A stretch of 43,795 nucleotides of DNA. Origin: Dehalococcoidia bacterium (GTDB lineage: Bacteria > Chloroflexota > Dehalococcoidia > Dehalococcoidales > JAUVZA01). Position 1 is the stretch's first letter. Every line of letters starts with the position of its first letter. A program made the translations under genes and the position numbers. The stretch covers positions 1 to 43,795 of the forward strand of contig JAUVZA010000003.1 in NCBI GenBank assembly GCA_030602805.1, written 5' to 3'. Under the pieces are notes generated by a model, which made no database searches, was not told the origin of the DNA, and saw nothing but the letters and a program-made list of their open reading frames with translations. Positions 5,668-36,499 of the stretch are shown here, piece by piece.

Positions 5668-5730
5668 TAGGTCTCCTCCTAGAGATGTGTCTTTGAGTAT
5701 AGCATTGATAGGTGGTAATGGCAATTAAGC

Positions 5731-6600: not shown

Positions 6601-6642
6601 TTTCTTAGTAGATAACATCTAAGTCGTGAGCTTTGACCCTCT

Positions 6643-13644: not shown

Positions 13645-13756
13645 GAGATTGCTTACCAACCCCTCACCCTTTATCCCTCTCCCCTTCATAAGGGGAGAGG
13701 GAGGAGAATTTCTTAAAGGGGCTTCGCCCCTTTTAATCCCTTTACTAAACAACCTC
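13645..13756 (-). repeat. MITE-like element, subfamily A, with 8-bp target-site duplication
   Basis: Imperfect TIRs GAGATTGCTTAC and (rc) GAGGTTGTTTAG; CATCCTTA at both 13637-13644 and 13757-13764. Confidence 0.88.
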
Positions 13757-14680: not shown

Positions 14681-14792
14681 GGTAGTACTGTTTGTGGTAG
14701 CAATAAAAAAGGGTAGTAAACTATAGTGTCTTTTACTACCTTTCAGGGTAGTCTTTAGAGGTAGTTATGGGAGGTAGTTATGTAGAGGTACT
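14681..14792. repeat. GGTAG(T/C) iteron-like array
   Basis: Copies at 14681, 14696, 14712, 14747, 14760, 14773, GGTACT at 14787, plus an inverted copy at 14735-14740; 13-14 bp period in the last four. Confidence 0.6.
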
Positions 14793-14823
14793 TCTCTTCT
14801 GCCCTTTCGTTCTCCATGAAGCA

Positions 14824-14844
14824 CTTGTGCCCTCAGGGTGTCGC
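14824..14844 (-). repeat. conserved site E (GCGACACCCTGAGGGCACAAG on - strand)
   Basis: 20/21 identical to 32079-32099. Confidence 0.8.
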
Positions 14845-17597: not shown

Positions 17598-18230
17598 ATG
17601 ACACAAGTTAGCCCGATACGCGACCTTAAAGGATACCTTGAACCCGAGCAGGTGGAGAGGGTGCTTGCCACTGCCACCAGTCCCAGGGACGCGCTGCTTG
17701 TCCGCATCCCGTGGCGAACCGGCATCAGGGTGTCAGAACTCATCGGGATAAGGGTTCAGGACATAGACTTCGAGGGCAGAGCTGTCTTGATTAAAATCCA
17801 AAAGCAGAGAAAGAGAGATGGCAAAACGGTCGAAAGAAGAAGGCTCGTCCCTATTGACCGGGACACCTTGGGCATGGTGAGGGAGTACCTGAAGTGGCGA
17901 GCGCAGTTTCCCTACAAGGGTGACCTTTTATTCCCCATTTCACGCCAAAGGGTTGCCCAAGTTTATTGGAAATTGGGAAGAAGAGCAGGGATAAAGGAGA
18001 TAGGTGACCCAGCAGTCTCCAAGCATAGGAAATTGCATCCGCATGTGCTTCGCCACAGCTTCGCCATCCACTGTGTGAAACATGGTATGTCAATTGAGCG
18101 ATTACAGAAAATCTTGGGGCACTCAAGCCCCACGACCACTTCAGTCTACTTGCAATACTCCTTGAAGGACCTCCATGAGTCCTATGACGAAGTTTGGGAA
18201 GAAGATGAAAGAGAAGAGACCAAGGATTAA
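17598..18230 (+). CDS. tyrosine recombinase, catalytic domain only (210 aa)
   Basis: GIRVSE, HPHVLRHSFA, LGHS, TSVY catalytic residues; no room for an N-terminal core-binding domain. Confidence 0.93.
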   Translation: MTQVSPIRDLKGYLEPEQVERVLATATSPRDALLVRIPWRTGIRVSELIGIRVQDIDFEGRAVLIKIQKQRKRDGKTVERRRLVPIDRDTLGMVREYLKWRAQFPYKGDLLFPISRQRVAQVYWKLGRRAGIKEIGDPAVSKHRKLHPHVLRHSFAIHCVKHGMSIERLQKILGHSSPTTTSVYLQYSLKDLHESYDEVWEEDEREETKD

Positions 18231-18651
18231 AAAAGCAAGAAAAGAGTCTGGTAAGAAACGGAAGCCGACGAATCCCCCGCAAATAACCGGCTTCTGGGGG
18301 CGGGGAGCCAGTCTGTACAGGCCTGGCTTGTTTACAAAAAAGTATTTTGTAAAGCACGGTGAGACCTGCGCTGCCGACATCTACTATGCGCTAAGCCAGG
18401 AAATAGAGCGCTTAAACAAAGAACGAATTGAGATAGGCGAAAAGCCCTTTGAAAGACCGAACTACTCCAGTTTCTCAAGGTATTTTCATTGGTTCCTCAT
18501 ATTGAAACTCATAGAGCGCACTGACAAGCGAGAGCGTGCAATTTACAATTTCTTGCAGAAGCGAGTATTCTACAAGTTGACTGCCAAAGGCAAGGCTGAA
18601 GTGACTGCCTGGGAGGACCCGATTTCAGTAAGACATCCAGAGTTTCGCTAA
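18205..18651 (+). CDS. putative winged-HTH DNA-binding protein coupled to the recombinase
   Basis: Overlaps the recombinase 3' end; basic; RVFYKLTAKGK wing-like motif; start assumed at ATG 18205. Confidence 0.6.
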   Translation: MKEKRPRIKKARKESGKKRKPTNPPQITGFWGRGASLYRPGLFTKKYFVKHGETCAADIYYALSQEIERLNKERIEIGEKPFERPNYSSFSRYFHWFLILKLIERTDKRERAIYNFLQKRVFYKLTAKGKAEVTAWEDPISVRHPEFR

Positions 18652-18893: not shown

Positions 18894-20063
18894 TCACACA
18901 TTGCCAATTTGTTTTTTCAGCCTATCCGCCATTAGACCTATATTTAGATCAGGCACCCCTAACCGACCAAAATACCGAGTAAAACGAGCGATCAGCGCTT
19001 CAGCATAAGGGCTATCTAAAGATGCAATGCGTTCTAATTTTCCCTGCTCTTTTAGCGAATTGAATTCGTCTAAAGTAATAGCCATTAGTTGTTGAAAGTC
19101 AACGACCATATCCGGCAGGTCTATTACGCCTGGGAGAAACTTAAATCTTTCTGGTTGCTTGCCTTCTCTGTTGTCATTTAGTAGGCTCTTGATTTTTCCT
19201 TTCGCTTTTTGATCCCCTGGATTTTGTGCCAATTCAACATATTCTGGTTGTTCACTTAGGAGCGAACAACGAGCAAATAACATCCACTCCGCTTTCCCCT
19301 TGTCGATGTCACATGACGGCGTCAGCAAGACGGTATATTCAATTTGGTCATCAATTGTCTTGGAAAATATATCACCTGTCGTAGGCTCTGCGCTTATCGA
19401 TGGAATTATGTAATACATCATTGGATGCACATTATCTTCGCCGCACCAAACTCCCGTTGTGTCGCCTAATTCTTCTGCTAATTGTTGTATTCCCGGACCA
19501 TCTAAAGATTTTGCTAGTCGCCTCGCCAGCAAATAGGCAAGTGAGGTGCGGTCAGGGGTGTCACCGAATTTCTCCCAATTGCGAGCTACAAAGTCCCACA
19601 TGTAGTCACGCTGTACTTCCTTCACGTGTCTTAAAAGTGCTCGATTCACTAGCGGTATTCTAGTTGAGAGAATTTCCTTTACTATCGATACAACTTTTGG
19701 TAATCCTTCCGTATTTTCAAGAACTTGTATTAACGGTGTTTCCAAATGTCTGACCTTTTGCGGTAGACCAGTGTAGAATATAACAGGTATAAAACATCTG
19801 GCTTTGATCGATTCAAGTACTTTTATGCCTTCCTCTTCTTCTCGTTCTTCTTCATGTGGTCCAAGTCTTACATCTAAAACGACAAAGTCAAAGTGACCGG
19901 ATTCCAATCTATCCAATGCCTTATCAAAGTCAACTTCTGTAGTGACTCTCAATTTCTCACCCGGCTCTGAAACAACTTGTTCATTCAGGTATTTGTCCGC
20001 CAGCTCACAGTTCTCAGCATTATCGTCAACAAATAACAGATACCAGTAATTTTCTTCCGCCAC
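18894..20063 (-). CDS. response-regulator receiver fused to an unknown C-terminal domain
   Basis: LLFVDDN, VVLDVRL, FYTG; C-terminal GDIF..VLLTPSCD and RYFGRLG. Confidence 0.8.
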   Translation of the reverse strand: MAEENYWYLLFVDDNAENCELADKYLNEQVVSEPGEKLRVTTEVDFDKALDRLESGHFDFVVLDVRLGPHEEEREEEEGIKVLESIKARCFIPVIFYTGLPQKVRHLETPLIQVLENTEGLPKVVSIVKEILSTRIPLVNRALLRHVKEVQRDYMWDFVARNWEKFGDTPDRTSLAYLLARRLAKSLDGPGIQQLAEELGDTTGVWCGEDNVHPMMYYIIPSISAEPTTGDIFSKTIDDQIEYTVLLTPSCDIDKGKAEWMLFARCSLLSEQPEYVELAQNPGDQKAKGKIKSLLNDNREGKQPERFKFLPGVIDLPDMVVDFQQLMAITLDEFNSLKEQGKLERIASLDSPYAEALIARFTRYFGRLGVPDLNIGLMADRLKKQIGNV

Positions 20064-20064
20064 T

Positions 20065-22236
20065 TCATATTCTCCTGCGAAGAATAATCCTAAATGTTGT
20101 TCCAGGTAATGGGCCTTCTTTTATCAATGCCATAGTTCCGTCATAATAATCGCTAACTATTTCTCCGGCAATTGTCAATCCCAACCCGATTCCATTGGGC
20201 TTGGTTGAGAAATATGGATCAAAAATCATATCTTGATATTCTTCTTCAATGCCAGGCCCACTGTCTGAAAAAATTATCTCCAGTTCATATTCTTCTTTCC
20301 TGTTTATCTTAACGGTGATGAATCTTGAATCCTTCGGAACCTGCTTAAGCCAGTAAAGACTGTTGTTCAATAAGTTAACAATAACTTCTTGTATTTCAGC
20401 CTGATCTACAGTCACCTCTGTATATGTCGATGGCAGATCGACTTCTGCTCCCACCTGTTCAATTTCTTTTTCTAATACGGAGAAAGCGTTATAAATTACA
20501 TTCTCTAATGATATCCTCTCAGGTCTCCCGCGCCGGCGACCCCCAAAGGGTTCTATTTTACGGAATAGCGTCGCCAGTACGTCTGACTGAGTTGATATTG
20601 CTTTGAAGTGACCCCTCAATTGCCTTACTATTTTCTTACCGTTCTCATATATTTGATTAATATCTTGCCTTGCTACATGTGTAACATTAATAATCTTAGA
20701 AAGAGGTAATCGACCCTCGTGAAGCACAGTATCAATCAACATACCAAGAGTTGCCAACCTCCGATATCTAGAGATAATCTCTTCTGCTTCCCCAACCCTT
20801 TTTTCTAAATCTTTTTCCTTTTTCTTTACCGCGTCTAAGAGTTCTGTATCTCTGGGATGCTTTGTCGTTACGTATTCCCTAATGCTTGCCAGATTAAAGT
20901 CTACGAAGAGACCCCTCTCTGCCATTTTCTTTTTCTTAGGTCTTTCCTGCCATCTTCTGTTTTCCAATAACGCGATCATTAACGTGACCAGATATTTGAA
21001 ATCCTCGAATGCTTCCCCTTCCATAAGGCCTTCTCTGTTGCTCTGGTCACGTAATAATGGATTATCTTTAGATGTAACAAATATAGAACCAATTATTTGG
21101 TTATTAGAGAGATTTCTTGTAGGACGTAGAAAACGCCTGTAATCAAGTCGTAGCCAGTCTTCACGTGGTTGCCCGTATGGCAATACTCTAAAACCATCCC
21201 GGTATATACTTATTCCTGATGCAAAATCTAGATAGCGACGTATCTCAGCAACGGTGAATTCATTTCCTGACACTGCGTTCAAAGATGCTATATCGCGGTT
21301 CCAGACACGAAGCTCTATTTCAAAAGGACCACATTTTGGCAACCTCCCATCACCCATGGAGAAATGCCCCTCTTTTTTCTCTTCTATCCCCTTTTCCCTG
21401 AATTGCAGTGATAGATTATAATTACCTTTCGCGTCTACCTCTCCCCTTAATATGTAATGGGGTCTCTTGACTATTTCTGGTGGTTTAATTGTTTCAGAAT
21501 ATTCTTGAAAAGCTTCAGGCAGTTTTAGAAATATTTGAAAATCTTCCTTTAACGTATAATCCAATTCACCGAATGATGGTGAGATTAGTCTTGACAATCC
21601 ATTCTGTAAACTTTCAAATTGTGGTTTACCCCAGGCCGTCTTTAGCCCTCGCATTCTTAATATAGTACCGTAATCTAATTCATTCTTATCCAACTTCTTT
21701 GATTTATCCCATAATCCCTCAATAACACCACCGGGATATATTTCCTTTGGTTTACTCTGTTCCCACATAACCTCTATCTGGTCAAGGAATTTTTCTTCAT
21801 CATCAAACTGATTCCAATCGAATGTGACCCTTGTTTCACTATCCGTGCCAGATCGTCTGGTTATTACTTCCAGTTTTTCAGCTAATCTTGATGAAGCAAA
21901 TCTGCCGATTCCTTTTTCACCAAGTACACGGCGACTGAACTTCTCACTAAACCTGCTCCTTTTCCTCATTAATGTTGCTGGTTCCATCCAGGTTGTTCTG
22001 ATAGTTTCTAAATCCATACCATGGCCGTTGTCTATTACCTCTATCATACCCTTACCGATTTCAAGAGGCTCATGAAAGTAGACCCAGACTCGTGTGGCAT
22101 CTGCGTCATACGCGTTTTTAACTAGCTCAATTACGGCGACTGTCTCACTACTGATAAGTTCATCGCCAAAAGTACGTAAGAGCCTCGCCCTCGGCCTTAA
22201 TTTACTTACCCCTGAACCCTTTTCTATATCTGCCAT
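20065..22236 (-). CDS. MORC/GHKL ATPase fused to a histidine kinase
   Basis: N-terminal ELVKNAYDADA, DNGHGM, GEKGIGRF; C-terminal H box LHEGRLP, N box NLLNNS, DSGPGI, FSTK, GIGLGL. Confidence 0.9.
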   Translation of the reverse strand: MADIEKGSGVSKLRPRARLLRTFGDELISSETVAVIELVKNAYDADATRVWVYFHEPLEIGKGMIEVIDNGHGMDLETIRTTWMEPATLMRKRSRFSEKFSRRVLGEKGIGRFASSRLAEKLEVITRRSGTDSETRVTFDWNQFDDEEKFLDQIEVMWEQSKPKEIYPGGVIEGLWDKSKKLDKNELDYGTILRMRGLKTAWGKPQFESLQNGLSRLISPSFGELDYTLKEDFQIFLKLPEAFQEYSETIKPPEIVKRPHYILRGEVDAKGNYNLSLQFREKGIEEKKEGHFSMGDGRLPKCGPFEIELRVWNRDIASLNAVSGNEFTVAEIRRYLDFASGISIYRDGFRVLPYGQPREDWLRLDYRRFLRPTRNLSNNQIIGSIFVTSKDNPLLRDQSNREGLMEGEAFEDFKYLVTLMIALLENRRWQERPKKKKMAERGLFVDFNLASIREYVTTKHPRDTELLDAVKKKEKDLEKRVGEAEEIISRYRRLATLGMLIDTVLHEGRLPLSKIINVTHVARQDINQIYENGKKIVRQLRGHFKAISTQSDVLATLFRKIEPFGGRRRGRPERISLENVIYNAFSVLEKEIEQVGAEVDLPSTYTEVTVDQAEIQEVIVNLLNNSLYWLKQVPKDSRFITVKINRKEEYELEIIFSDSGPGIEEEYQDMIFDPYFSTKPNGIGLGLTIAGEIVSDYYDGTMALIKEGPLPGTTFRIILRRRI

Positions 22237-22271
22237 TACGCTACCCCGACGATTGTTTTCCCTCGTTTTAT

Positions 22272-22922
22272 TTATCTTTCAGTATTGTATGAACAAATAT
22301 TACTTAAAGGACATTCATTACATTTTGGCTCTTCTTTTTTTGTACATACCTGATCGGCCAAATCTAGAAGTGCAGAATTATAAACCCCTGGTTCCTCAGG
22401 ATCAACGAGTTCAGCTGCCAGTTCTTTGAATTTAGAATTACGCCTTAAAGAATCTTTTATTTCCATGTTATATATGCGACCAATTACCCTTACCGTATTT
22501 GTGTCTCTCAAAGGTTCTGCCATATTCCATGCAAAGCATCTAACACTACACGCGATATAATCGCTAATACCTGGTAGAGACAACAGCTCACTCTTATCCT
22601 TAGGAATTTTAGATCCATACTTATTTACGAGCATCTCTGCCATATCCTTGATAAGGTTAACACGCCATTTAAGACCCAGTGTAAATAATCCCTTATGCAA
22701 TTCAGATTTGCTGGCTCTTGCTAGGGTCTTTATGTCAGGATATTTTCTAATAAAACTTTCGTATATTCTAGCTACCTGTACAGCCTGTGTACGGTGTAGC
22801 ATTATCTCTGCCAATAGAACTTTATAGGGTTCCTGAGTCCTCCTCCATGGGAAGTCGCGGTAATTTCCTCTCCCCCATTTCTTGACCTTCGTCCGATATT
22901 CCCCTATCTTTGTCGCATCCAT
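22272..22922 (-). CDS. HhH-GPD DNA glycosylase with 4Fe-4S loop (Mig/MutY-like, probable T:G mismatch glycosylase)
   Basis: FPWRRT..PYKVLLAEIMLHRT, LPGISDY, DTN, C-x7-C-x2-C-x5-C; adjacent to a C5-MTase. Confidence 0.85.
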   Translation of the reverse strand: MDATKIGEYRTKVKKWGRGNYRDFPWRRTQEPYKVLLAEIMLHRTQAVQVARIYESFIRKYPDIKTLARASKSELHKGLFTLGLKWRVNLIKDMAEMLVNKYGSKIPKDKSELLSLPGISDYIACSVRCFAWNMAEPLRDTNTVRVIGRIYNMEIKDSLRRNSKFKELAAELVDPEEPGVYNSALLDLADQVCTKKEEPKCNECPLSNICSYNTER

Positions 22923-22923
22923 G

Positions 22924-23880
22924 TTATCGATCCACTTTACTAATTGCTCTAACTATAGATTTCATTACTGGCGGACAAACCGCATTTCCCATTAGCTTCA
23001 CTTTTTCCCGTCGTGTACCTACCTCCAATCGGTACGTTGTAGGGAAACCCATAGCTACTTTTAATTCTTCCGGTTGAAGCATCCTCATCATATAACCCAT
23101 ATCAGTGGGTTTTACAAACGCAAATCTATCAATAGTGGTAACAGTTCTAAGAGGCCTATCAATGGGTTGCCATCCTCCACTCCCATCCGTACCATAGTAA
23201 ACAATCAAGAATGATTCTTCTGCTCCTAGAGAACTGATAGCCCTTTCTGCACGTTGAATTGTGGCTACAGCTCTTTTCGGAGAATACAGAGGCGTATAGC
23301 CATAATTACCATTTAGGTCGATAATTGAACAGGCCGGTTGTAACTCTTTTCTTTGTTTCTTCACGCAACCGATCTCCCCTATCCGTGAACAGAGTAAAAA
23401 AAGCCTTCTTCTTGATTGTGGCACACCAAAGTCTTGAGCATTTAATATCTCTTCCCGCACATAGTAGCCTAAATTCTGTAGCTCTTCTACCAGTTCCCAG
23501 TGTCTATCCCATGACCTCATTTGTATTACGTTTTCAATAACAACCCATCTGGGCATAAATTCCTTGGTGAATCTTATTACTTGAAATGCCGTCATTTTAC
23601 TATTTTCACATCTGGCACGTGCACCTCTTGCACAACTATGATTTGTGCATTCCGGCGAAGCAAGTATTAGATCAATATCTCCAATAACTTCATGAAGCCT
23701 CTTTGGAGATATCTTTCTGATATTCTCATTAATCATTTCCGTTCCAGGGAAATTTCTAGAATAGGATAAAGACGCGATATTCCAATTATCAATTGCGGCG
23801 ACTATTTTAGCGCCAGCCATTTTTGCCCCGATACTACTCCCGCCGGCACCATGAAATAAATCCAGAGCCCTAATCCTCAT
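22924..23880 (-). CDS. DNA cytosine-5 methyltransferase
   Basis: DLFHGAGG, SPEC (PxC variant), ENV, QSRRR, MGNAVCP. Confidence 0.93.
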   Translation of the reverse strand: MRIRALDLFHGAGGSSIGAKMAGAKIVAAIDNWNIASLSYSRNFPGTEMINENIRKISPKRLHEVIGDIDLILASPECTNHSCARGARARCENSKMTAFQVIRFTKEFMPRWVVIENVIQMRSWDRHWELVEELQNLGYYVREEILNAQDFGVPQSRRRLFLLCSRIGEIGCVKKQRKELQPACSIIDLNGNYGYTPLYSPKRAVATIQRAERAISSLGAEESFLIVYYGTDGSGGWQPIDRPLRTVTTIDRFAFVKPTDMGYMMRMLQPEELKVAMGFPTTYRLEVGTRREKVKLMGNAVCPPVMKSIVRAISKVDR

Positions 23881-24370
23881 AAGACGGTTCCTTATTGAAG
23901 ATCAATTCTGCCATTTCTAAATTCTTTTTGCTTAGCGGCAAATACCAAGCATTCATCCTTCTATCCCATGCCCTTATCCTGACAAAGTCACCCCAAGGAT
24001 ATCTATAAATGGCGAATAACCGGTAATTTGCATCTAGCTTGGCCACGACGAGGTATTCGAATAATTGTTTATCCCTATCCTTTTCGTCCGGATAGACTGT
24101 CCCGGTCTTTTTCGCTTTCATAACGGTTTTTATCGAATATCTCTCCCCATCCCTCGACAGTGCATCAACATTCTTTGCACCAACTGGTGCTTGAAGCAGA
24201 TTCGGCAGTCCAGGTTTTGAATTGAAGAACGATATCACGAGCTTTTCACCAACTTCTCCCACCTTAAACAAGATACCACGCCTATTCAATTCTGTTTCTA
24301 TGTTAGCTCTTAAGATCACCAATTCATCGTTATTTAACTTTCTTAGATCAGCAAATGGGCCTCTGTTCAT
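23870..24370 (-). CDS. putative PD-(D/E)XK endonuclease
   Basis: GEVGE...NVDA....RYSIK motif; overlaps the MTase start; start assumed at ATG 24370. Confidence 0.55.
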   Translation of the reverse strand: MNRGPFADLRKLNNDELVILRANIETELNRRGILFKVGEVGEKLVISFFNSKPGLPNLLQAPVGAKNVDALSRDGERYSIKTVMKAKKTGTVYPDEKDRDKQLFEYLVVAKLDANYRLFAIYRYPWGDFVRIRAWDRRMNAWYLPLSKKNLEMAELIFNKEPSYED

Positions 24371-24395
24371 TTCTCTATCACTGCTACTTCTAAAT

Positions 24396-24650
24396 TTAAT
24401 GGCCATGTGGATTAGCTTCTTGGCTGCTTCTGGCTGTATCCCCCGTAAGCTCGTAGTGCCATCCATGATCGTCATGCACTGAGCGAATCTTATAACCGCG
24501 TCGTTTTAGTTCCGCAACAATACGTTGCGCCGTTGGACGTGACACATCTAAAGCAATCGCAAGCTTTCGTGTATTCATAGGACTGCTAGCAATCAGCTCA
24601 CCTGCTTTGCTAATACGTTGTTCGATGCGATGAGTGCGTTCGTATGGCAT
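24396..24650 (-). CDS. HTH_11-type winged-helix regulator (controller-like)
   Basis: KLAIALDVSRPTAQRIVAELKRRGYKI; first gene of the operon. Confidence 0.8.
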   Translation of the reverse strand: MPYERTHRIEQRISKAGELIASSPMNTRKLAIALDVSRPTAQRIVAELKRRGYKIRSVHDDHGWHYELTGDTARSSQEANPHGH

Positions 24651-24678
24651 CCTTTTTTGCCCTCATACTTTTGACACA

Positions 24679-24725
24679 ATTATAACCAGAATCATTGATA
24701 TATGTCAATCAACTTGTGATATAAT
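24679..24725. promoter_or_regulatory. overlapping divergent sigma70 promoters
   Basis: Minus strand TTGACA (24708-24703)-18 bp-TATAAT (24684-24679); plus strand extended -10 TGaTATAAT (24717-24725). Confidence 0.65.
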
Positions 24726-24907
24726 TTACTCAATTAGCGATGGGGTTTTGGTCAGTTATAAGAAAGCGACCTACTTTATAGGGTGCCTTTCTTTTTTAAA
24801 CTTAAATCGCACAAAATGACGGAATGTTACCCTCCTTGTTCTCATTCTAATCCGGCTGATGTATAATATGACTGACTCGATAAAGTAGCGAAGGCTGGGA
24901 AGCACAC

Positions 24908-26821
24908 ATGGCAAAAGGAAAGCAGGGAGGCTTGGGTGACGAGCTGTTAGGCACAAGATTCGGTGAGTTGCGTGATGCCTCCGGTCCAACTAAAGGTGAA
25001 TTTGTCCCACCACCTGATGTATCCAGCACAGAGGAAATAGAAGAAGCTCTTCCTGAGCAAGAAGAGTTCTGGCGCCCCCCAGCTCGTTTTGGAACAGTAC
25101 CCGTAGAAGCAAACCCGTTGGGCTGGGATTCACGCCGTGGATATTATAAGCTATACCCACAAGTAATGCTGCCTACTCAGGTTGTGGAGCGTGTTAGCTT
25201 TGGACATCCTGCGCTAGAGCCTAACCGCCTCTTCTGGGGAGACAACCTTCATGTAATGCGCCAACTTCCCTCCCAAAGTATTGACCTCATCTATATAGAC
25301 CCTCCATTCTTCTCCGGTATGCAATATAATGTTATTTTCGGCGACCAGAATGAGTTACGTTCTTTTAGTGATATTTGGGAAGGGGGGATGCCAGGTTATC
25401 TAATCTGGCTGAATGCCAGACTATATGAAATGAAACGTCTGTTGAAGAAAACCGGTTCCATCTATATCCATCTAGATTGGCACGCCTCCCATTACGTTAA
25501 GCAAGAGATGGATAAAATATTCGGATATGGCAATTTTAGAAATGAGGTTGTGTGGACATACACTAGACCCGGAACAGCAGCACAGAAGCAGTTGCCCAGA
25601 ACACATGATGTTATTCTTTGGTATTCGAAAAGCAACGTATGGAAGTTTAACACCCAGCATATACGCATTCCGTATGCGGATTCGACCGTATCCAGGGGAC
25701 AATACTCTATTGCTACGAGTAAAGTCACTAAGGGCATCGAAAAGAGGGTACTGAATGAGAAGGGCAAAGTTCCGGAAGATTGGTGGCATATTCCGATGAT
25801 ACAAGGCAATGCAAGGGAGCGGCTTGGTTACCCTACTCAGAAACCAGAGGCTCTACTTGAAAGAATCATTCACGCATCATCAGAAGAAGGGCACGTCATT
25901 GCTGACTTTTTCTGTGGTGGAGGCACGACTCCTGCGGTAGCTCAAAGATTGGGCCGCCACTGGATAGCTTGTGACCAGTCCCGTGTTGCAGTCGCCATTA
26001 CTGCTGACAGGATATCCGGTATAGTTGAACAGATGCCTCTAGAGCAGGCCGGTAAGACATTTACCGTCCCAGACTTCACCGTTGAGCACTGGGGCATATA
26101 CGAAGCAAAGCGGCTCTCGGAGACCCCGCCAGACCAGTTTCGTCAATTCGTCCTTCGCGCCTATGGAGCAGTGCCTGATAACTCCGAGCTAGGCATCCAC
26201 GGGCATAAGGGTGCTATCCCAGTATGGGTTGGCGAGCCTTCTCAGAAATCGCAGGTTTCCGCGCAAGATGTAGTGAACTTTGCTAACGCCGTGCGTAAGA
26301 CGGTTCGCTACCAACAGGATAATCTCCGTGACGGCACTATGCTTGCTTGGGCCTTCCGCCCCGATGCAATGCAGGCAGCACAGCAACTCCGTGAACAGGA
26401 AGCCACCGACCTGAACTTTATCCGCCTTGATATGGTTCGTATTGACTCCCCCACGTTCCGTGAACATGTCAACGTTCTCTCCACTGACAAGGCGGACTAT
26501 AGCACCTTTCTGACATTCGTACTGCCACCGAGAGTTGAGGTTGGCTGGAAAAAGCTGACCGGGCTAACGTACCGCTTTGATGTAAGCGAAACTATTGTGC
26601 TGAATGCTGGTAGCAAAATAATCAATGTCCAGTGGGACTTCAACTACCAGGGTGTATTCACCAGTACCCAGGGCTTTTCTTTCATTCGCACTACTTCGAA
26701 AGAGCCTACCCTACAGGTTGATTATACTTTCCCAACGTCAGGACGCTATCACATCGCCTGTAAAGTGCAGGATGATGTTGGGGGTGAGGGGTTATGGACA
26801 GGGTATATAGAGGTCAAGTAG
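24908..26821 (+). CDS. Type III Mod-like amino-methyltransferase with C-terminal PKD-like domain
   Basis: IYIDPPF, YPTQKPEALLERII, DFFCGGGTT (beta-class order); C-terminal WDF...YTFPTSGRYHIACKV. Confidence 0.9.
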   Translation: MAKGKQGGLGDELLGTRFGELRDASGPTKGEFVPPPDVSSTEEIEEALPEQEEFWRPPARFGTVPVEANPLGWDSRRGYYKLYPQVMLPTQVVERVSFGHPALEPNRLFWGDNLHVMRQLPSQSIDLIYIDPPFFSGMQYNVIFGDQNELRSFSDIWEGGMPGYLIWLNARLYEMKRLLKKTGSIYIHLDWHASHYVKQEMDKIFGYGNFRNEVVWTYTRPGTAAQKQLPRTHDVILWYSKSNVWKFNTQHIRIPYADSTVSRGQYSIATSKVTKGIEKRVLNEKGKVPEDWWHIPMIQGNARERLGYPTQKPEALLERIIHASSEEGHVIADFFCGGGTTPAVAQRLGRHWIACDQSRVAVAITADRISGIVEQMPLEQAGKTFTVPDFTVEHWGIYEAKRLSETPPDQFRQFVLRAYGAVPDNSELGIHGHKGAIPVWVGEPSQKSQVSAQDVVNFANAVRKTVRYQQDNLRDGTMLAWAFRPDAMQAAQQLREQEATDLNFIRLDMVRIDSPTFREHVNVLSTDKADYSTFLTFVLPPRVEVGWKKLTGLTYRFDVSETIVLNAGSKIINVQWDFNYQGVFTSTQGFSFIRTTSKEPTLQVDYTFPTSGRYHIACKVQDDVGGEGLWTGYIEVK

Positions 26822-26824
26822 CCA

Positions 26825-28846
26825 ATGTTCAACGAATTTGCCAGATATGAAGAAGATTTCAAGGCGTGGTGCCAGGACGGTTACCCTACCGACTTTGCCA
26901 CCACATATCGCTACATTGATTTCCTCAGTGACCCAACTAATGACCAAGCACCGCGAGAGGGCACCTTATGGCTCCATCAGTGGGAGGCCTTCCTCAGAGT
27001 TGTTTATTCCTATGAGGTGTTGGGGAAGAAGACTATTGGAGAGCATGGTCTGCTGCTGAACATTGTGACCGGTGGTGGTAAAACAGCAGACATTGCTGCC
27101 ATTATAGCCTGGTTACGCATCTCTCATGGGGGGCAAAAATTTCTAATGCTTTGCCCCAATCTCATCGTGCGCGACCGCTTAGAAGAAGATTTTGAAAAAG
27201 GTAAGGTATTCAAAGACCGAGACCTGTTGCCAGATTGGTCAAATGCTCGACCCCAGGATTTTGATCTGACTACTCTTGGTGGCGGCAAAAGCAGTGGTTG
27301 GGCAAGTTTCTTGGGTGCCAGTATAGTTCTTGGCAATATCCATCAGTTCTACCAAAGCAATATAGCAGGTAGGAGTAATTTGTCAGCGCTTATGAATGGG
27401 CCAGATTTTGTCCTGTTCAACGATGAAGCCCACAATTCCCCAGCGGAAGAGTACACAACCACACTGCAGCGTATCGAAAAGAAGGTGTTGCTACGTATAG
27501 ACACTACGGCTACACCCGACCGTGCTGATGGTAGAGCCCCTGACAGCGACATGATCTACGAATATGACGTCAATGATGCCTTGGCAGATGGTCTTATCGC
27601 GACGCCGGTAGTTTATCAGCCAGACATCAAGACTGTAGAGCTCACCTATACCGATGCCCTGACTGGAGTCACTAAAAGAGTCGAAGAGATTGATTGGGAG
27701 GAGGTCGATCGCAAGGGTCTCAGTGCTACACAGTGGGTAACCGATGACAAACCAATGCGTCAGCAGATGGCAATCGCCCTTAAGCGTCTTCAAGAGCAGG
27801 AGATGAGGGCAAAGGGGCGTTACCAACCCATCCTGTTCGTCGTTGCCGTATGCAAGAAGGATGCGATAAAAGCGGAAAATACACTCTCCAAAATCTTTAA
27901 GGTCAAAACATTGCTAGTGACTGAGGACAGCCCCGAAGTGGATAGAAAGAGTGCACGTGAGTTGGGGCGTCAGCAGAAGACAAAAGACCCATTTAAGGCA
28001 GTAGTTAGCGTCCTTATGTTACGGGAAGGCTGGGACGTTCCAGAGGTGGGCGTTATCCTGCTCCTTCGTAAATTTAGCAGTAAGGTATACGGCCAACAAG
28101 TTGTTGGGCGTGGGCTGCGCCGAGTTCGTACCAAAGGCATATTACCTGAAGAGCCACAGATTTGTGCCGTCGTTGATCACCCCAAGCTGGAGCATTACTG
28201 GTTATGGGATATTTTTAATTGTAAGATCCGTCCAAATGTTACTACGGAGCAGATGTTTGACGAGGCTGAAGATTTACCACCACCGCCACCACGACAGGAT
28301 ATTTCTCGTCCCGAGTTTGTGATTGATGTTCCGAAAGAAATTGAAGGGCTTGTCGATGAAGGTGAATTTGAAGTGGGCGAGATTGAGCTAACCGAGCCCA
28401 TTGAGAATTGGGAAGAAGTACTTGCATCTCTTGAGTATAGTGGAGAGACAGTCGAGATAACCGACCAAAAAATTACAGGAGTTACCGGCAAGGAGTTAAT
28501 CCCCAAGGGGTGGAAGACAATTCACAGTGCCCCGGACTTGCCGCCGAAAGACAATGGTACACAAGTAGAAGATACTGATGATAACATGCGGGAAGCCATA
28601 AAGAACCGGGTACTGGAGCTTGCTGAGGAACTGTGTGTTAATTCCGGTTATGCTGCGGGTTTTCGTGGTGAAGTGTACAGTGCTCTGATGCAGCACGTCA
28701 GGGGAAAATTCCTTGACAACATGACTCTAGGTCTAGCTGACCGGCGTGGTCTCGATTATGCCTGGAAGATGTTGTACCAAGTGAAAGTTAAGGTTACTGC
28801 AGTACCGGGACTTGTCGGAGGGATAATAGAATATGCCAATAAGTAA
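26825..28846 (+). CDS. Type III Res-like SF2 helicase/ATPase
   Basis: VTGGGKT, DEAH, TATP, MLREGWDV, QVVGRGLR; no obvious C-terminal nuclease motif. Confidence 0.88.
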   Translation: MFNEFARYEEDFKAWCQDGYPTDFATTYRYIDFLSDPTNDQAPREGTLWLHQWEAFLRVVYSYEVLGKKTIGEHGLLLNIVTGGGKTADIAAIIAWLRISHGGQKFLMLCPNLIVRDRLEEDFEKGKVFKDRDLLPDWSNARPQDFDLTTLGGGKSSGWASFLGASIVLGNIHQFYQSNIAGRSNLSALMNGPDFVLFNDEAHNSPAEEYTTTLQRIEKKVLLRIDTTATPDRADGRAPDSDMIYEYDVNDALADGLIATPVVYQPDIKTVELTYTDALTGVTKRVEEIDWEEVDRKGLSATQWVTDDKPMRQQMAIALKRLQEQEMRAKGRYQPILFVVAVCKKDAIKAENTLSKIFKVKTLLVTEDSPEVDRKSARELGRQQKTKDPFKAVVSVLMLREGWDVPEVGVILLLRKFSSKVYGQQVVGRGLRRVRTKGILPEEPQICAVVDHPKLEHYWLWDIFNCKIRPNVTTEQMFDEAEDLPPPPPRQDISRPEFVIDVPKEIEGLVDEGEFEVGEIELTEPIENWEEVLASLEYSGETVEITDQKITGVTGKELIPKGWKTIHSAPDLPPKDNGTQVEDTDDNMREAIKNRVLELAEELCVNSGYAAGFRGEVYSALMQHVRGKFLDNMTLGLADRRGLDYAWKMLYQVKVKVTAVPGLVGGIIEYANK

Positions 28847-29183
28847 ACACGACATCTACTGGGAACCTAAAAAGAGCCCGTATAATTTTGAAAAATATGA
28901 TAGTAGACTTGAATCTTGGATGATGGAGAAACTCGATGATGACCCTACAGTGGTAAAATGGATGAAGAGACATGGGATTAGCATCCCCTGGATTGATGTG
29001 CAGAAACATCAACGCCGCTATGTGCCTGATTTCATTGTTGAATATATTGACGGTAACAAATCAATTCTCGAAGTAAAAGACCCTAGTAGAGTAGATTCTG
29101 ATGAAGTGAAGCGGAAGAGGAAAGCTGCTGAGATGTGGTGTAAAAAACGGGGAATGTCATATGTTGTTGCCACAGTGGAGTAA
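28833..29183 (+). CDS. TnsA-N-like PD-(D/E)XK endonuclease
   Basis: YDSRLE...RYVPDFIVEY...ILEVK; overlaps the helicase stop. Confidence 0.8.
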   Translation: MPISKHDIYWEPKKSPYNFEKYDSRLESWMMEKLDDDPTVVKWMKRHGISIPWIDVQKHQRRYVPDFIVEYIDGNKSILEVKDPSRVDSDEVKRKRKAAEMWCKKRGMSYVVATVE

Positions 29184-29300
29184 GAAACTTTAGATATACA
29201 GCTACTGCACATTCTAGCGATTTGTGCAGCAGTGAACCTGAGAACCCTTGCCTGGGGTGGGGCAGCGTTGGACTTCTCCTGTGAATACTGTTGGAAGCTG

Positions 29301-29915
29301 TTAGGGCTCCAATGCTTCGAAGAGAGTATGTCCCCTTAGGCTATTATAAAGTGCGCTGACTTCCTTGTTGATGGTTCTATTCTCCTTATCCAGTGCTTTC
29401 TTTTGTCCGTAGAGCCACAGATATTTGTCGAGGTCCTCCCAGGGTACGGAAGCAAGTCCTACCTGATCGCGGAATGCCTTGATAGCCTCAAAAAACTTCG
29501 TGTAGCTAGGAAAACTGAATCCGCGCTTTTGTAGCTGTGCCATAGCAGCCACAGCAAATGAGTCGAATATGGGGAAAGCAGTCTTATTATGAAAGTGAGC
29601 ATATTTACTGGCGAAGGAAATATAATAATGGTCATCCTTAGCTATGAGTTCAACTGCTTCTACTTCCCCTGCCATTAGTTGTGCATCAAGCCTGTGTAAC
29701 GCCAGTATATGCCTCGCCATTCGTAACGGCTCTCTGATACCGGCAAAATAAAGGCTGTTTACCAGAACCACCTTAGTAACCACACTGTACTCTTTCATGT
29801 TGTCTGGGTGGTCTTGGAGATAGGAGGCTATGACCTCATTTGCCAGCTTCCAGCCACCAAGCCTTTCATAGAGTTGTTTTGCCGCCTTGATGTTTCGTAG
29901 CCCGGGTGGTGTCAT
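29301..29915 (-). CDS. hypothetical protein, possible HhH/OGG-like glycosylase fold
   Basis: SFASKYAHFHN..FPIFDS and LDKYLW motifs; ATGA overlap with the upstream gene. Confidence 0.55.
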   Translation of the reverse strand: MTPPGLRNIKAAKQLYERLGGWKLANEVIASYLQDHPDNMKEYSVVTKVVLVNSLYFAGIREPLRMARHILALHRLDAQLMAGEVEAVELIAKDDHYYISFASKYAHFHNKTAFPIFDSFAVAAMAQLQKRGFSFPSYTKFFEAIKAFRDQVGLASVPWEDLDKYLWLYGQKKALDKENRTINKEVSALYNSLRGHTLFEALEP

Positions 29916-30967
29916 TGACTCTCTCTCCTTCCTTGTTGAAAGAGTTCCCTAACAGGTTTACCTCTGCTTACCTCCTTCCAGCCGTACCGTGTCCTGAGGT
30001 AGTCTATCCACTCCCAGTTGTTGGCCTCTACCCGCTGTGCGATGATATCAAGTAGGTCCTCGACTGAGATGCTCATAAACTTGTCTTTGGGCACCAGCTC
30101 TTTCCAGATTTCGAGCACACCTTTGTTGGGGAACATCTGGTCCAACTTAGGTGAAGTTACCCGCTCTCTGAATTCCTTATTAGCCTCGGGACAGATATAA
30201 AGCACACTCACCACATCAGCTCCCATCTCCTGACCATATTCCATTTCTTGGGCAAGCAATTGAAGGCGCATGAGTTGATAGAACGGATCAAAGAATAGGG
30301 CATCATAAAAATCTACGTCCCGTCGCTTGAAGACCCCGCCCTCCCTGTTGAAAGCCTGCTGATAGTTATGTTTCCTGACCTCAATGCCCTTATCTAATCT
30401 GCGATATTCTTCCGTATATTTCCATTCTCCAAGGACTATTTGTATTTTCCCATCCTTTCTTCTAAACCGGAAGATAAAGTCAGCACTGGTAAAATTTGCT
30501 CCCCGAGTTCGTTTTGATCCTTTGCGCCTGGTTTCGCCCAGATAGTCGCGAACACCAATCCACTCGAAAGCCAAATACTGAAATGAACCATTCGGAGGAG
30601 GTTTATCTTCATCGATTAGAAGCGGCTCTGCCAGACTCCGATAGAAATGTTGGAAGACATTAGCAAGTATCTTTGAGCTGGTTGTCATTGGGTATAGGAA
30701 ATTTATACAGCATGACTGAGAACAGCATAGGTGATTACTGGGTACGTGCCGTTCTTTGAGACCATCGTGCCAAGTGATATTTCGAGCCCTAAAGTACTCA
30801 ATTGCAGATGCCCTGATGGCTTCGTAAAGATTTTCGCTAGAACAGTCATCAGCAAGACAAAAGGAGTGGGGCCGCCCACGATAGTTACCTTCGCCTTGGG
30901 CTGCAGGGCTAAACAGCTTCGGCTTAAGCTTCTTGTATCTCTCCTTTTCTCTATCTCTAAAGGTCAT
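29912..30967 (-). CDS. PGN_0703-like putative restriction endonuclease
   Basis: HLCCSQSCCINF, RGANFTSAD, GEWKYTE, YQLMR motifs. Confidence 0.7.
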   Translation of the reverse strand: MTFRDREKERYKKLKPKLFSPAAQGEGNYRGRPHSFCLADDCSSENLYEAIRASAIEYFRARNITWHDGLKERHVPSNHLCCSQSCCINFLYPMTTSSKILANVFQHFYRSLAEPLLIDEDKPPPNGSFQYLAFEWIGVRDYLGETRRKGSKRTRGANFTSADFIFRFRRKDGKIQIVLGEWKYTEEYRRLDKGIEVRKHNYQQAFNREGGVFKRRDVDFYDALFFDPFYQLMRLQLLAQEMEYGQEMGADVVSVLYICPEANKEFRERVTSPKLDQMFPNKGVLEIWKELVPKDKFMSISVEDLLDIIAQRVEANNWEWIDYLRTRYGWKEVSRGKPVRELFQQGRRESQ

Positions 30968-30985
30968 AGGTAATCTCTTTCTCCC

Positions 30986-31016
30986 TGACCCTCAGGGTGT
31001 CGCAGATCAAATCCTC
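30986..31016 (-). repeat. conserved site C
   Basis: - strand GAGGATTTGATCTGCGACACCCTGAGGGTCA, 18 bp upstream of the 30967 start. Confidence 0.75.
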
Positions 31017-31140
31017 AATCAATAGCTAAAAGCCACCTTGGGGGGATTCGTACCCCCTACCTTTAGACTGCCAGTAATTAAGGCTAAAACCGAGGCAAAA
31101 CGGGAAGCAACCATGCTCCTTTCTTGTTACTTCCTACTGT

Positions 31141-31452
31141 CTACCTTAGCCTAGCACGGCGAATTATCTCCTCTATTGGCTCACGGACATTAGCCCACCA
31201 TTTGCGGTATACCCACAAGTGGTCGTAGCAAGCATAGCGCCTTTGGCATTGTGGGCATAAAGGGGAATCGCCATATCGCAGCGTCCCTGCTGCTTCAGCT
31301 CCTCTTAGAATTTCCCATCTCTTTCCTCTACGGCTCAAGATTACCCACCTTTCCTTTGCTTTTACCCTTAGGGCCTCTCGGCTTAACCTTCCACTAGGCT
31401 AAGCGTAAAGCTCCAGTATCTTTGACCAGAATGAATATCTAGGGGCTTTCAT
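31141..31452 (-). pseudogene. small basic Cys-containing ORF; possibly extended to ATG 31452 with an in-frame TAG
   Basis: Track ORF 31141-31338 (CPQC...C..H) is in frame with MKAPRYSFWSKILELYA*PSGR...; TAG at 31399-31401. Confidence 0.4.
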
Positions 31453-31454
31453 GT

Positions 31455-31490
31455 GGTGCCCTCAGGGTGTCCGCTTCATGTTTAATCCTC
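31455..31490 (-). repeat. conserved site D
   Basis: - strand GAGGATTAAACATGAAGCGGACACCCTGAGGGCACC. Confidence 0.7.
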
Positions 31491-31501
31491 ATAAGCAACC
31501 G

Positions 31502-31723
31502 TTAACAATTGCAGACAGTCTTGGTAATGTCACCCGACACTTTAGCTACTCTAATCAGGCGGTATCCAGCCTCCTGATCCTTGGGGCTAGAGCTGAACGT
31601 GGCCACACAGCCAAGGAAGCCGAGTAGCATTGTTACACCGATTAGTGCCGAGCATGCAACAGCACGTAGCTGTGAGACGGGCTGCCCGACAGGAATACCG
31701 ATTAGCTTTTCAGTATCCTCCAT
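31502..31723 (-). CDS. small membrane protein
   Basis: GGAGGAGG RBS; one hydrophobic helix. Confidence 0.55.
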   Translation of the reverse strand: MEDTEKLIGIPVGQPVSQLRAVACSALIGVTMLLGFLGCVATFSSSPKDQEAGYRLIRVAKVSGDITKTVCNC

Positions 31724-31759
31724 TTTGCCCTCCTCCCCCCTTTTTTTGGTGCTTAATCT

Positions 31760-32062
31760 CTAAAGATACCCGAGCTCATGTAGAGCTCGAGCCACTCCTT
31801 TAATATCCGGCATCACATAGAATGTTTGTTTGCTCGTCTGTGCTACCTTTCTCAAGATGCCGTATTCCTCATCAAGCATCCTCAAGTTAGGGAACCAACC
31901 AACCTCTTGCCTCTTGTACACCTAGGAACCAGCAAATCTATTGCCCCCATGACTCTTAGCTTCCTCATAGCAGCCTCTTACTACCTTGAGCCAGTCTACC
32001 TTAATGATACCCCTTGATCTGGGGTGTTCTCGCGCTAGTCTCATTACGCCTTCATAGCTCAT
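31760..32062 (-). pseudogene. ~100-aa hypothetical gene interrupted by TAG
   Basis: MSYEGVMRLAREHP...NRFAGS*VYKRQEVGWFPNLRML...YVMPDIKGVARALHELGYL*; TAG at 31922-31924; AGGTGG RBS. Confidence 0.65.
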
Positions 32063-32078
32063 AGTCGCCACCTACAGT

Positions 32079-32122
32079 CTTGTGCCCCCAGGGTGTCGCA
32101 TATCTAATTCTCCCTTATGTCC
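32079..32122 (-). repeat. conserved site B (full length, includes the core shared with site A)
   Basis: - strand GGACATAAGGGAGAATTAGATATGCGACACCCTGGGGGCACAAG. Confidence 0.8.
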
Positions 32123-32552
32123 TCTTCCAGTCTGGACAAGCGTCTTGCCCGTGCCTGTGAGGAGGAAACAGACAGCTTGCCCTGTCACTAAAGCCCAATC
32201 GCTTGCCTTGCTTTCTCTGTCCCTCAATGGGCAGACGCCTTGCCCTGCTAGAGAGGAGCGGGAGAACCGCCTAGTTTATACGCTTTAGATTTTTAATTTA
32301 TAGCTAAATTCCATTATAACACTTTTATTAAAAAAGTAACTACTTCTTATTCTTTTCTAAAGGGTCTTTTGTAAAGCATACTTATTGTAGCAGATATGAG
32401 TTTTTGAGTAAATCATAATTCTACTAGCACCTTAACAACTGAATATAACTCAAAGCCAAAGCTGGAACGCTTGCCTAGTCTAGGGGCAAATAAAATGCCC
32501 TAGCCAGTGTTAGCTAACTAGGGCAAATCTAACAAAGCGAGGTATCCCGACA

Positions 32553-33023
32553 ATGCTAGACTGGAGCAAGTATATCACCATAGCCGATAAACTACAACAC
32601 AAGGCAATATGGCAAGATAGACAAGACCTCAATCATACCATTATAGCAAGCCTTGCCGACGCTCAAATAAGGCTAGACAATGATGGTGGCGGGCAATTAT
32701 CCGACATAGCTATGCTACGGATAGGCTCTTATGAGTGCCAGAAGTATTGGCGACAGCAAAAGAGGTTACTAACTATCTTGAGCCTCAATACCGACATAGA
32801 CGACGGAGACGGTAACACTACCGAGCTAATAGACACCATAGCCGACGACAAGGCAATTGACCTTGACGCTTGGCTAGACAACAAAACCTTTTTACTCGGT
32901 TGCCCAATGAGGCTAATCCAGATAGCCAATAAGGCAAGGCTAGGCAAGCCACTAACTAACAAAGAGCGTCAATACTTGTGGTATTGGCGTAAAAAAGAGC
33001 AAAAAAGGCTAGAGTTATCCTAA
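32553..33023 (+). CDS. sigma-factor-like hypothetical protein
   Basis: DRQDL, SLNTDIDDGDG..ELIDTIAD (sigma region 3-like), C-terminal LTNKERQ; GAGG RBS. Confidence 0.55.
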   Translation: MLDWSKYITIADKLQHKAIWQDRQDLNHTIIASLADAQIRLDNDGGGQLSDIAMLRIGSYECQKYWRQQKRLLTILSLNTDIDDGDGNTTELIDTIADDKAIDLDAWLDNKTFLLGCPMRLIQIANKARLGKPLTNKERQYLWYWRKKEQKRLELS

Positions 33024-34895: not shown

Positions 34896-34948
34896 CCAGC
34901 TTGGGGAAAATTGAAAGGGCTAACTATGCCCAGAAAGGAGGTGAAACT

Positions 34949-35242: not shown

Positions 35243-35311
35243 AGTGTCGCAAAGTGGCTCACTTTGAAAGGGTAGCTATGCCCAAAAATCAGGAGAAAGG
35301 AGGTGATAGAG

Positions 35312-35791: not shown

Positions 35792-35845
35792 GCAAAATAA
35801 TGCCCGGTCCGAAAGGGGTAACTATGCCCAGAAAGGAGGTAATAA

Positions 35846-36410: not shown

Positions 36411-36499
36411 TCTCCAGCTTCAGCTCCTAAGACTACCCTTCTGGAGTACTGGGCTCACTTTTTGCGGTGGTTTCTTCGTTGAATACTTCTATTCAGCAG

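Follow-up and report, generated by a model that had tools for sequence, protein, structure and literature searches.

Dehalococcoidia are an abundant, hard-to-culture class of sediment bacteria with streamlined genomes, and their accessory genes lie in tandem islands linked to attachment (att) sites. The available part of PMC2764846 describes tandem direct-repeat att fragments in the ssrA islands of Dehalococcoides. A related accretion model for cis-mobilizable and integrative mobilizable elements (CIMEs and IMEs) is set out in the available part of PMC5704250. Acinetobacter plasmid dif (pdif) modules, in the portions available of PMC13141974 and PMC6449649, are small accessory-gene modules that are bounded by short sites and shuffled between replicons. 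Here we analyzed a 43,795-nucleotide stretch of a Dehalococcoidia genome (GenBank assembly GCA_030602805.1, contig JAUVZA010000003.1; the window), which contains a mobile element of ~22 kb. On its minus strand, a short conserved site heads successive, unrelated and exchangeable gene blocks. This description, first made in a sequence-only reading of the window, stands and extends far beyond the window. We consider the site to be the recombination junction of an integron- or accretion-like array with a probability of about 45%.

The site is an invariant 19-bp motif, GCGACACCCTGAGGGCACA, with a semi-conserved left flank, GAGGATTAAACATGAAGC; its logo reads a.GA..AAA.ATGAAGC-GACACCCTGAGGG-CACAaga. 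In the window, three sites named B, D and C share the core GACACCCTGRGGG, which is preceded by GC and followed by CAC(A). All three are real and non-random. As the earlier reading had claimed, they are co-oriented on the minus strand, intergenic and shortly upstream of an ATG (2-21 nt; the ATGs are at 32062, 31452 and 30967, respectively). Site B (32079-32112, core 32085-32097), with GAGAATTAGATATGCGACACCCTGGGGGCAC at 32112-32082, closes a conserved control region and heads unit 1. Site D (31455-31490, core 31459-31471) heads unit 2 and has one additional G before the core; the canonical form lacking this G is found in 9 and 6 contigs from two DNA runs. Site C (30986-31016, core 30989-31001) heads unit 3. 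A fourth copy on the minus strand (14824-14844, with an exact core at 14830-14842) is located near the left end of the element, where it points outward and has no credible downstream gene. A near-copy with one mismatch on the plus strand (16567-16579) falls within the 3' end of the replication-initiator gene, and the usual flanks are absent. The degenerate copy that had been proposed at 29247-29279 (minus strand) is not a copy of the motif, because it shares few letters with it and the homologous stretch in a related locus, L060, carries the same non-motif sequence.

The number of matches exceeds that expected by chance. CGACACCCTGRGGG with up to two mismatches has five matches in the window versus 0.38 expected, and none of 100 shuffles reaches five; GAGRATTWRAYMTG has three versus 0.49 expected. 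The genome that contains the window (1.51 Mb in 104 contigs; the own genome) has nine exact cores versus none for a reversed control. Four are on the window contig, C24, four on contig C58 and one on contig C76, and all three are mobile-element contigs. Eight one-mismatch matches elsewhere in this genome lack the flanks. Below, L-numbers denote related loci and G-numbers denote genomes.

The three sites divide the region into the blocks that had been described. Unit 1 (31502-32062) contains a small gene (32062-31760), which is interrupted by an in-frame TAG (31924-31922), and a 73-aa gene (31723-31502). Unit 2 (31141-31452) is a single open reading frame (ORF) of 103 codons, likewise with an in-frame TAG (31401-31399). 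Unit 3 (29301-30967) contains a REase-ARP/PD-(D/E)XK nuclease gene (29912-30967) and a 204-aa gene (29301-29915). This layout of two small genes, one small gene and a nuclease pair holds, but the label 'HhH-like' for the 204-aa gene does not, as the gene has no Pfam match. The first gene of unit 1 has an intact homologue in L083 with an alanine where the in-frame TAG stands, and the same gene truly ends in TAG. Since the homologue is intact and TAG serves as a real stop, the interrupted genes behind sites B and D are probably decaying cassette genes and not cases of recoding.

A metagenome scan, selected on the 19-mer, gave at least 118 stretches. Our pooled set, drawn from the matches listed, consists of 99 loci, 516 kb and 196 distinct copies. 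Copies in the same loci and in whole genomes that were not used for the selection are also mostly exact. Five sister metagenome-assembled genomes (MAGs) contain 2-14 copies each on 1-6 contigs. Among 60 relatives of the same order there are 11 single exact cores; only one of them has the flanks (G019, L016), and the remainder are chance-like. A scan of species-representative genomes gave 23 stretches, of which 13 are from Dehalococcoidia/Dehalococcoidales MAGs, 2 are flanked multi-copy contigs binned elsewhere and 8 are chance-like. A scan of IMG/VR with a 20-nt degenerate pattern gave no matches. According to these counts, the motif is not scattered but concentrated in each genome on a few island contigs. 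It is confined to mobile-element contigs, and the genome-wide scatter that the earlier reading named as refuting was not seen. The carriers are two kinds of integrative element in sediment Dehalococcoidia. The second kind, on C58 and C76, encodes an excisionase, an XRE-type helix-turn-helix (HTH) protein and a Zn-ribbon protein and adjoins tRNA-Lys(UUU). Our literature search, which screened listings and was made without supplements and most subscription journals, found no description of the motif or of such arrays in Dehalococcoidia.

The motif forms arrays in many of these loci, for which the array analysis counted 200 copies in total. At least two copies are present in 54 of the 99 loci, and neighbouring copies have the same orientation in 99 of 101 pairs and the opposite orientation in 2. 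The median spacing is 511 nt (interquartile range (IQR) 324-798). The 98 intervals between neighbours hold one ORF in 59 cases, none in 23, two in 10 and three in 6. L086 and L056 have nine counted copies each, all preceding small genes, which often encode a lipoprotein or membrane protein. That the motif heads successive unrelated gene blocks is therefore confirmed, as co-oriented arrays recur in many related loci. The upstream gene is co-oriented with the motif in 146 of 176 cases, and it can end within the motif, either at a TGA in the core (26 copies) or at a TAA in the left flank (14 copies). A Shine-Dalgarno (SD) sequence, a start codon and an ORF of at least 35 aa follow 142 of the 183 testable copies, with a median core-to-start distance of 27 nt (IQR 21-34). 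The other 41 have no downstream SD, start or ORF. A conserved sigma-70-like promoter, TTGACAC-N5-TTGACAAAAGGTTAATAT, is located 0 or 10 nt before 12 of the 196 copies. In L033, this promoter module stands alone between two copies and makes up a promoter-only unit. In two loci, large serine recombinase genes begin right behind a motif copy (L073 at ~6020-6069, where the copy has a CTTTTAA-type flank, and L024 at 2477-2496).

No attC-like hairpin is formed by the motif, in agreement with the earlier reading. Folding of 70 copies with 70 nt of upstream flank gave z-scores of about -0.4 (mean -0.38) for the sense and about -0.6 (-0.62) for the antisense strand and revealed no conserved fold; six single folds have z-scores of -1.37 to +0.60. 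By inspection of the logo, symmetry is restricted to CCCT-G-AGGG. An Rfam search of 7 loci at a relaxed threshold found one tRNA and one S-adenosylmethionine (SAM) riboswitch, neither of them at the motif. No promoter-like or terminator-like site was called at the copies of the window array or of L086. On the antisense side in L086 (9851-9869 and 10420-10434, minus strand), the motif was called terminator-like, with a G-U-rich stem of 6-8 bp followed by the T-rich tail of the left flank. We rejected a short upstream ORF (M-K-RHPEGT) as a selected feature: its ATG is present in 101 of 196 copies, it stops loosely near the main start, and it has no synonymous changes.

Comparison of related loci revealed gain, loss and exchange of units at the motif. 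L100 differs from L072 by one additional 319-nt single-ORF unit with one motif, and L113 differs from L064 by two additional units; L087 and L053 versus L117 are likewise empty and occupied. The unit-plus-motif insertions or deletions are exact in the L100/L072 and L113/L064 pairs. L055 and L068 have the recombinase and control modules in common with the window, and their units differ. The window contig, L068 and L032 each have the REase-ARP unit behind a motif, with three different upstream neighbours; the homology with L068 (90% over 1203 nt) stops at 31016, and that with L032 stops at 30975. The control region and site B are common to L036, L069, L063 and L080, and the homology ceases just after CACA(A/G)G of the motif. 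A LigD-phosphoesterase-like unit is present in five loci, where its 3' flank and downstream motif are co-inherited and the homology ends right after CACAAG of the motif. Gene content and order around the motif thus vary among homologous elements, and the fixed gene order that had also been named as refuting was not seen.

The breakpoints are concentrated at the motif. Homology ends within 50 nt of a core in 19.6% of 1195 cases versus 4.7% for random places, and a breakpoint lies within 40 nt of 109 of 117 covered motif sites versus 132 of 246 covered gene starts with no motif. The two flanks have different histories. In pairs of copies that share only the upstream gene (n=47), the identity of the left flank is 0.62 versus a background of 0.40, which none of 5000 resamples reaches, and that of the right flank is 0.37, equal to background. 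In the 16 pairs that have the downstream gene alone in common, the identity is 0.49 versus 0.37 for the right flank, beginning at about +17 (resampling p 0.0004), and 0.38 for the left flank; in both comparisons the pairs are not independent of each other. As the left flank is inherited with the upstream gene and the right flank with the downstream one, this linkage places the exchange point within the invariant core.

The motif is also related to tRNA genes. The copy in L023 runs straight into the 3' half of a tRNA-Lys, up to the end of the contig. A T-rich stretch of the xTTTTAR/ATTTAG kind, mostly CACAAGACTTTTAAnnAGG, is located within ~20 nt after the core in 13 copies, among them that of L023, where it continues as the tRNA-Lys half. 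The xTTTTAR right flank is present in 8 of 95 last copies and in 3 of 96 internal ones, which is a mild enrichment only, and most internal copies have no direct fragment. In C76, a copy is 95 nt before an intact tRNA-Lys(UUU), with the fragment GACTTTTAATCA between them. In L050, L072 and L100, a distance of 20-22 nt separates a copy from the 3' end of a convergent gene for tRNA-Ile or tRNA-Leu. The first 12 nt of the motif, GCGACACCCTGA, are the reverse complement of the L023 tRNA-Lys(UUU) half at 12 of 12 positions. The matched segment, as read from the ARAGORN drawing, comprises the 3' strand of the anticodon stem, the variable loop and the first two bases of the T stem. The complementarity is 11 of 12 in the tRNA-Lys of L036 and L042 and 10 of 12 in the own tRNA-Lys. 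The terminal copies adjoining tRNA genes, the fusion to tRNA-Lys in L023 and the 12-nt reverse complement suggest that the motif descends from an att site.

Some integrase families integrate into the anticodon loop of a tRNA gene, with the stem halves acting as core sites. We propose that the motif derives from the P-arm side of the att site of such anticodon-loop-targeting integrases. It may consist of a 12-bp binding arm and a strand-exchange part of ~7 bp, which is a reading and not a result. The motif with its left flank would be the point where small units, with a median of ~0.5 kb and usually one ORF, insert, delete and swap. A recombinase encoded by the element or the host would join a resident copy with a copy on an excised unit, and the arrays would grow like integron arrays or by tandem accretion at att sites. 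The units would be transcribed by read-through from a single upstream promoter. The window array B-D-C, from 32112 to 29301 on the minus strand, would be such an array with three units. The role as a junction is favoured by the copies that are terminal or have no gene behind them, by the relation to tRNA genes and by the unit that consists of a promoter only, as well as by the invariance of the core and the lack of a shared regulator. A more specific version of this proposal we hold tentatively, at somewhat below even odds: capture would be integron-like but proceed with neither IntI nor attC hairpins, and a linear 19-bp descendant of a tRNA-Lys att site would trade ~0.5-kb units among at least two unrelated element families. 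In that version, the site used by the recombinase would be asymmetric and have a single arm, and the enzyme is perhaps encoded by the host.

The recombinase proposed in the sequence-only reading is a 210-aa Xer-like tyrosine recombinase with a catalytic domain only (17598-18230, plus strand; PF00589). Its best model is of the XerA type, with 139.9 bits versus a cut-off of 220 over profile positions 91-263 of 263. Integron-integrase models gave 62.6 bits (cut-off 265) and 47.3 bits (cut-off 435). No IntI-like family was found among 940 clustered ORFs of the 99 loci, with Pfam run on 112 of those ORFs. The gene is overlapped at its 3' end by a 158-aa partner gene (18175-18651, plus strand), which has no family match and is a recurrent neighbour of short recombinases. 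In the window (17598-18651), L025 (1896-3045) and L073 (1656-2544), the gene of a short Xer-like recombinase without the N-terminal core-binding domain invariably overlaps a following gene for a basic protein of 148-158 aa, which belongs to no known family, and the two proteins are possibly a split recombinase. The predicted fold of the 158-aa protein, based on a 6-sequence alignment, has a mean pLDDT (predicted local distance difference test) of 50 and is unusable. A sequence search of the PDB with the 156-aa protein discussed below and the 158-aa protein gave no significant match. A palindromic Xer-type pattern has one match with a mismatch in the own genome versus 2+2 for the reversed control.

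A number of observations weigh against a role of the motif as a recombination junction. The 158-aa partner is present in three of the six motif-bearing genomes (G000, G061 and G064) and absent from G062, G063 and G065. It is also present in one of 59 relatives that have no extended motif copy, G049, where a related element contains the recombinase/158-aa pair and the control region and zero motif copies. These distributions tell against the claim that the motif is served by the 210-aa recombinase. No recombinase family is common to all carriers, and a tyrosine recombinase is present in the fetched part of 10 of the 19 loci of at least 8 kb. The motif has neither a dyad of binding arms around a 6-8-bp spacer nor a hairpin. 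The final unit of the window has no closing motif, and the homology of the LigD-like unit ends on its 5' side elsewhere than at the upstream motif. The same insertions, deletions and flank linkage can arise by homologous recombination or replication slippage between repeats of 19-35 bp. The site-specific recombination proposed here draws on assembled contigs, in which neither a circular junction nor a recombination product was seen directly. Finally, the motif always points with the genes, at the median distance of 27 nt before an SD and start in the 142 copies, and 12 copies are directly behind a sigma-70-like promoter; both features fit an expression signal.

An expression signal, either a leader similar to the start-associated sequences (SAS) of mycobacteriophages or an operator similar to stoperators, with homologous recombination as the cause of the shuffling, is the principal competitor. 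As a whole we regard it as possible, if rather doubtful. It is favoured by the constant orientation, the nearby start codons, the promoter-linked copies, the missing dyad and the missing enzyme. The roles as a junction and as an expression signal are not mutually exclusive.

The form of this explanation that survives best, although we consider it unlikely, is an RNA-level 5' leader. The motif would be an unstructured 19-nt word to which a host or element factor binds, tuning translation or mRNA fate, and the shuffling of units would be a by-product of homologous recombination. Consistent with such a leader, the motif is always co-oriented with the downstream gene, and a purine-rich leader, an SD and a start are found within 90 nt in the same 142 of 183 copies. 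According to the available part of PMC3203893, SAS are equally asymmetric and unidirectional, precede different gene families and in some cases overlap the stop codon of the gene upstream. In 101 of 196 copies, the left flank has an SD-like GGA and an ATG at fixed positions, and CACCC of the motif pairs with the downstream SD in some folds. However, SAS are 3-7 bp from the start and contain the SD, neither of which is true of the motif. A leader also does not account for the 41 copies that lack a downstream gene, for the terminal copies that adjoin tRNA genes or for the inheritance of the left flank with the upstream gene. The short upstream ORF has neither synonymous variation nor consistent coupling, and the folds and the Rfam search gave no conserved structure or family. 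The complementarity to the own 16S rRNA (-24.0 kcal/mol) is no better than that of shuffled sequences (-22.8 +/- 2.5 kcal/mol). We also rejected an ops-like reading, as a search for NusG found the housekeeping copy only.

A DNA operator of the stoperator type is less likely still. A repressor bound at asymmetric sites would block initiation and elongation and silence the cargo of the integrated element. The sites are indeed asymmetric and located in short intergenic spaces, both at promoters and between genes, and they are oriented with transcription. Each element has numerous copies, some of which immediately follow promoters, as described for L5-type repressors in the available part of PMC9283540. 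Genes of the XRE type directly precede the first copy in C58, L041 and L086. Such a system should have a regulator in common, but the XRE family is present in three of the six motif-bearing genomes (G000, G062 and G063) and absent from the C24-type element, and with the queries used one motif-bearing genome has neither the XRE family nor the 158-aa protein. Immunity operators diversify, but unrelated elements and hosts have the same core here. An operator would also silence defence genes such as the REase unit, and it leaves the orphan terminal copies and the tRNA relation unexplained.

A per-gene promoter is very improbable. TAAACAT in the left flank would be the -10 element and the core the start region, used by the host RNA polymerase with a sigma-like or HTH factor of the element. 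The left flank resembles a -10 element and keeps a constant distance to the core, and a -35/-10 pair in L025 and L093 places the predicted start at the core. The candidate factor is the 156-aa protein (32553-33023, plus strand), the first gene of the plus-strand module, for which no Pfam family reached the cut-off. The clusters that a language model ranks as similar to it are viral or from Chloroflexota, and in one of them 69% of the members carry Sigma70_r2 (score 0.93, only 142 shared features, a lead only). On the other side, an exact TTGACA is present 25-50 nt upstream of 12 of the 196 copies only, and its offset to the core varies by 10 nt. No promoter was called at B, D, C or the L086 copies, and the 156-aa family is found in three loci only. 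A single-subunit RNA polymerase (PF00940) was not found in the own genome; this counts for little, as the control genomes were silent too. The sequence-only reading had offered an operator or promoter for a sigma-like or HTH protein of the element as its alternative, and this alternative is weakened by the absence of a sigma or HTH protein common to all motif-bearing genomes and by the scarcity of the sigma-70-like promoter. Least credible of all is a selfish or neutral repeat or an old att relic with no present function, left by past integrations: it fits the tRNA-Lys-derived sequence, the junction positions and the tandem att-fragment repeats known in Dehalococcoides (available part of PMC2764846), but relics would decay, whereas the 19 nt are near-invariant in about 200 copies with flanks diverged to background, and most copies are exact in the own and sister genomes.

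The array is one part of a larger mobile element. We annotated the genes of the window with Pfam, PHROGs and NCBIfam. Chromosomal genes run up to comEA (13862-14371), after which the ~22-kb element begins. It contains an HTH gene, a DnaD-like replication initiator, a 232-aa small serine recombinase of the resolvase/invertase type (16785-17483, plus strand), and the 210-aa recombinase with the overlapping 158-aa gene. These are followed by a defence island, the minus-strand array, a divergent control region and a plus-strand module of the 156-aa protein, a sliding clamp and small genes. The defence island (18894-29183) encodes a receiver-like protein with a 723-aa GHKL ATPase, an HhH-GPD protein, a C5 methylase, and an N6/N4 methylase with a ResIII helicase and a TnsA-like endonuclease; it includes type III restriction-modification. 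The divergent control region (32113-32552) has GGCAAG repeats and small hairpins, four of the repeats being within small hairpins at 32140-32290. It is conserved in at least 10 other loci, including L036, L055, L063, L067, L068, L069 and L080. A promoter-like site at 32412-32384 (minus strand) is inside this region, which probably holds the promoter that drives the array. Metatranscriptome contigs from two runs cover only 31479-31822 and 32255-32304; neither starts nor ends can be read from contigs, and the uncovered parts are uninformative. A contig joint from 31016 to 32201, found in a single contig with a 28-letter side, was too weak to use.

Other repeats were noticed in the window. A second repeated leader, GAAAGGG(C/G)TAACTATGCCCAGAAAGGAGGT, with a small hairpin and an SD, heads three consecutive plus-strand genes (34913-34942, 35265-35294 and 35811-35840). 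A cluster of ACTACC(Y)C repeats at 14700-14800 is just outside the terminal motif copy, and there is a 16-nt inverted match (88%) between 14745-14760 and 36424-36439. The repeat cluster and the 36424-36439 match are possibly the ends or arm sites of the ~22-kb element. Among the chromosomal genes, an intergenic repeat of ~100 nt occurs at 315-422, 2329-2414, 5725-5823, 6504-6609 and 13667-13736. It is also present in the relative G049 (L164, 17546-17647 and 19850-19978) with 73-89% identity.

If the motif is an active recombination site, it would represent a third way to build cassette arrays, beside integrons and dif modules. As a simple double-strand word it would be directly searchable, and it would account for the movement of small accessory genes, among them those for defence nucleases and lipoproteins, from one element to another. 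A compact pair of site and recombinase would be worth testing as a tool. If the motif is instead an expression signal, it would be a widely shared and unusually invariant leader that marks module boundaries, useful for annotating mobile cargo in metagenomes.

The motif arrays can be compared with four known systems. The SAS of Cluster K mycobacteriophages and the stoperators of Cluster A, in the parts of the sources available, are likewise short asymmetric words confined to mobile elements, with many copies in one orientation in short intergenic spaces before unrelated genes. In contrast to them, the motif is located 11-36 nt upstream of the SD/start region and excludes the SD. Its sequence is shared unchanged by unrelated elements, homology breaks off at it, and it is also found at the ends of elements with no gene. 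A stoperator system would be expected to have its cognate repressor in every carrier, whereas the XRE family and the 158-aa protein are each found in three of the six. In att accretion, described from the same bacterial class, repeated att-core fragments derived from a tRNA or tmRNA separate successive acquired segments, as the motif would do here if it descends from an att site. However, the ssrA-type units are islands of many kb that often have their own integrase, whereas the motif units are single genes of ~0.5 kb. The ssrA repeat reproduces the gene's 3' end in direct orientation, whereas the motif runs antisense to the tRNA segment, and only some of its copies are followed by a direct fragment of the anticodon loop. 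The pdif modules resemble the motif units in being bounded by sites and in that the recombinase may be supplied by the host, with no need for a linked enzyme; the recombinase in the window is also Xer-like. The pdif site, of 28 bp, has two Xer-binding arms around a 6-bp centre, whereas inspection of the logo reveals no second arm in the motif, and pdif sites alternate in orientation, whereas nearly all motif pairs are direct (99 of 101). In comparison with integrons, the arrays here have no IntI (62.6 bits versus 265), are located inside integrative elements and end at tRNA-linked junctions, and their site is a linear, near-invariant 19-bp word, whereas attC is a hairpin of imperfect inverted repeats, conserved in structure and variable in sequence. 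With integrons they share an array structure in which small ORFs, mostly single and often without a known function, all point the same way and are separated by a recurring site. They also share the exact gain and loss of an ORF with one site, exchange at the site, units that contain no ORF, and a promoter-bearing platform upstream of units at which no promoter or terminator of their own was detected.

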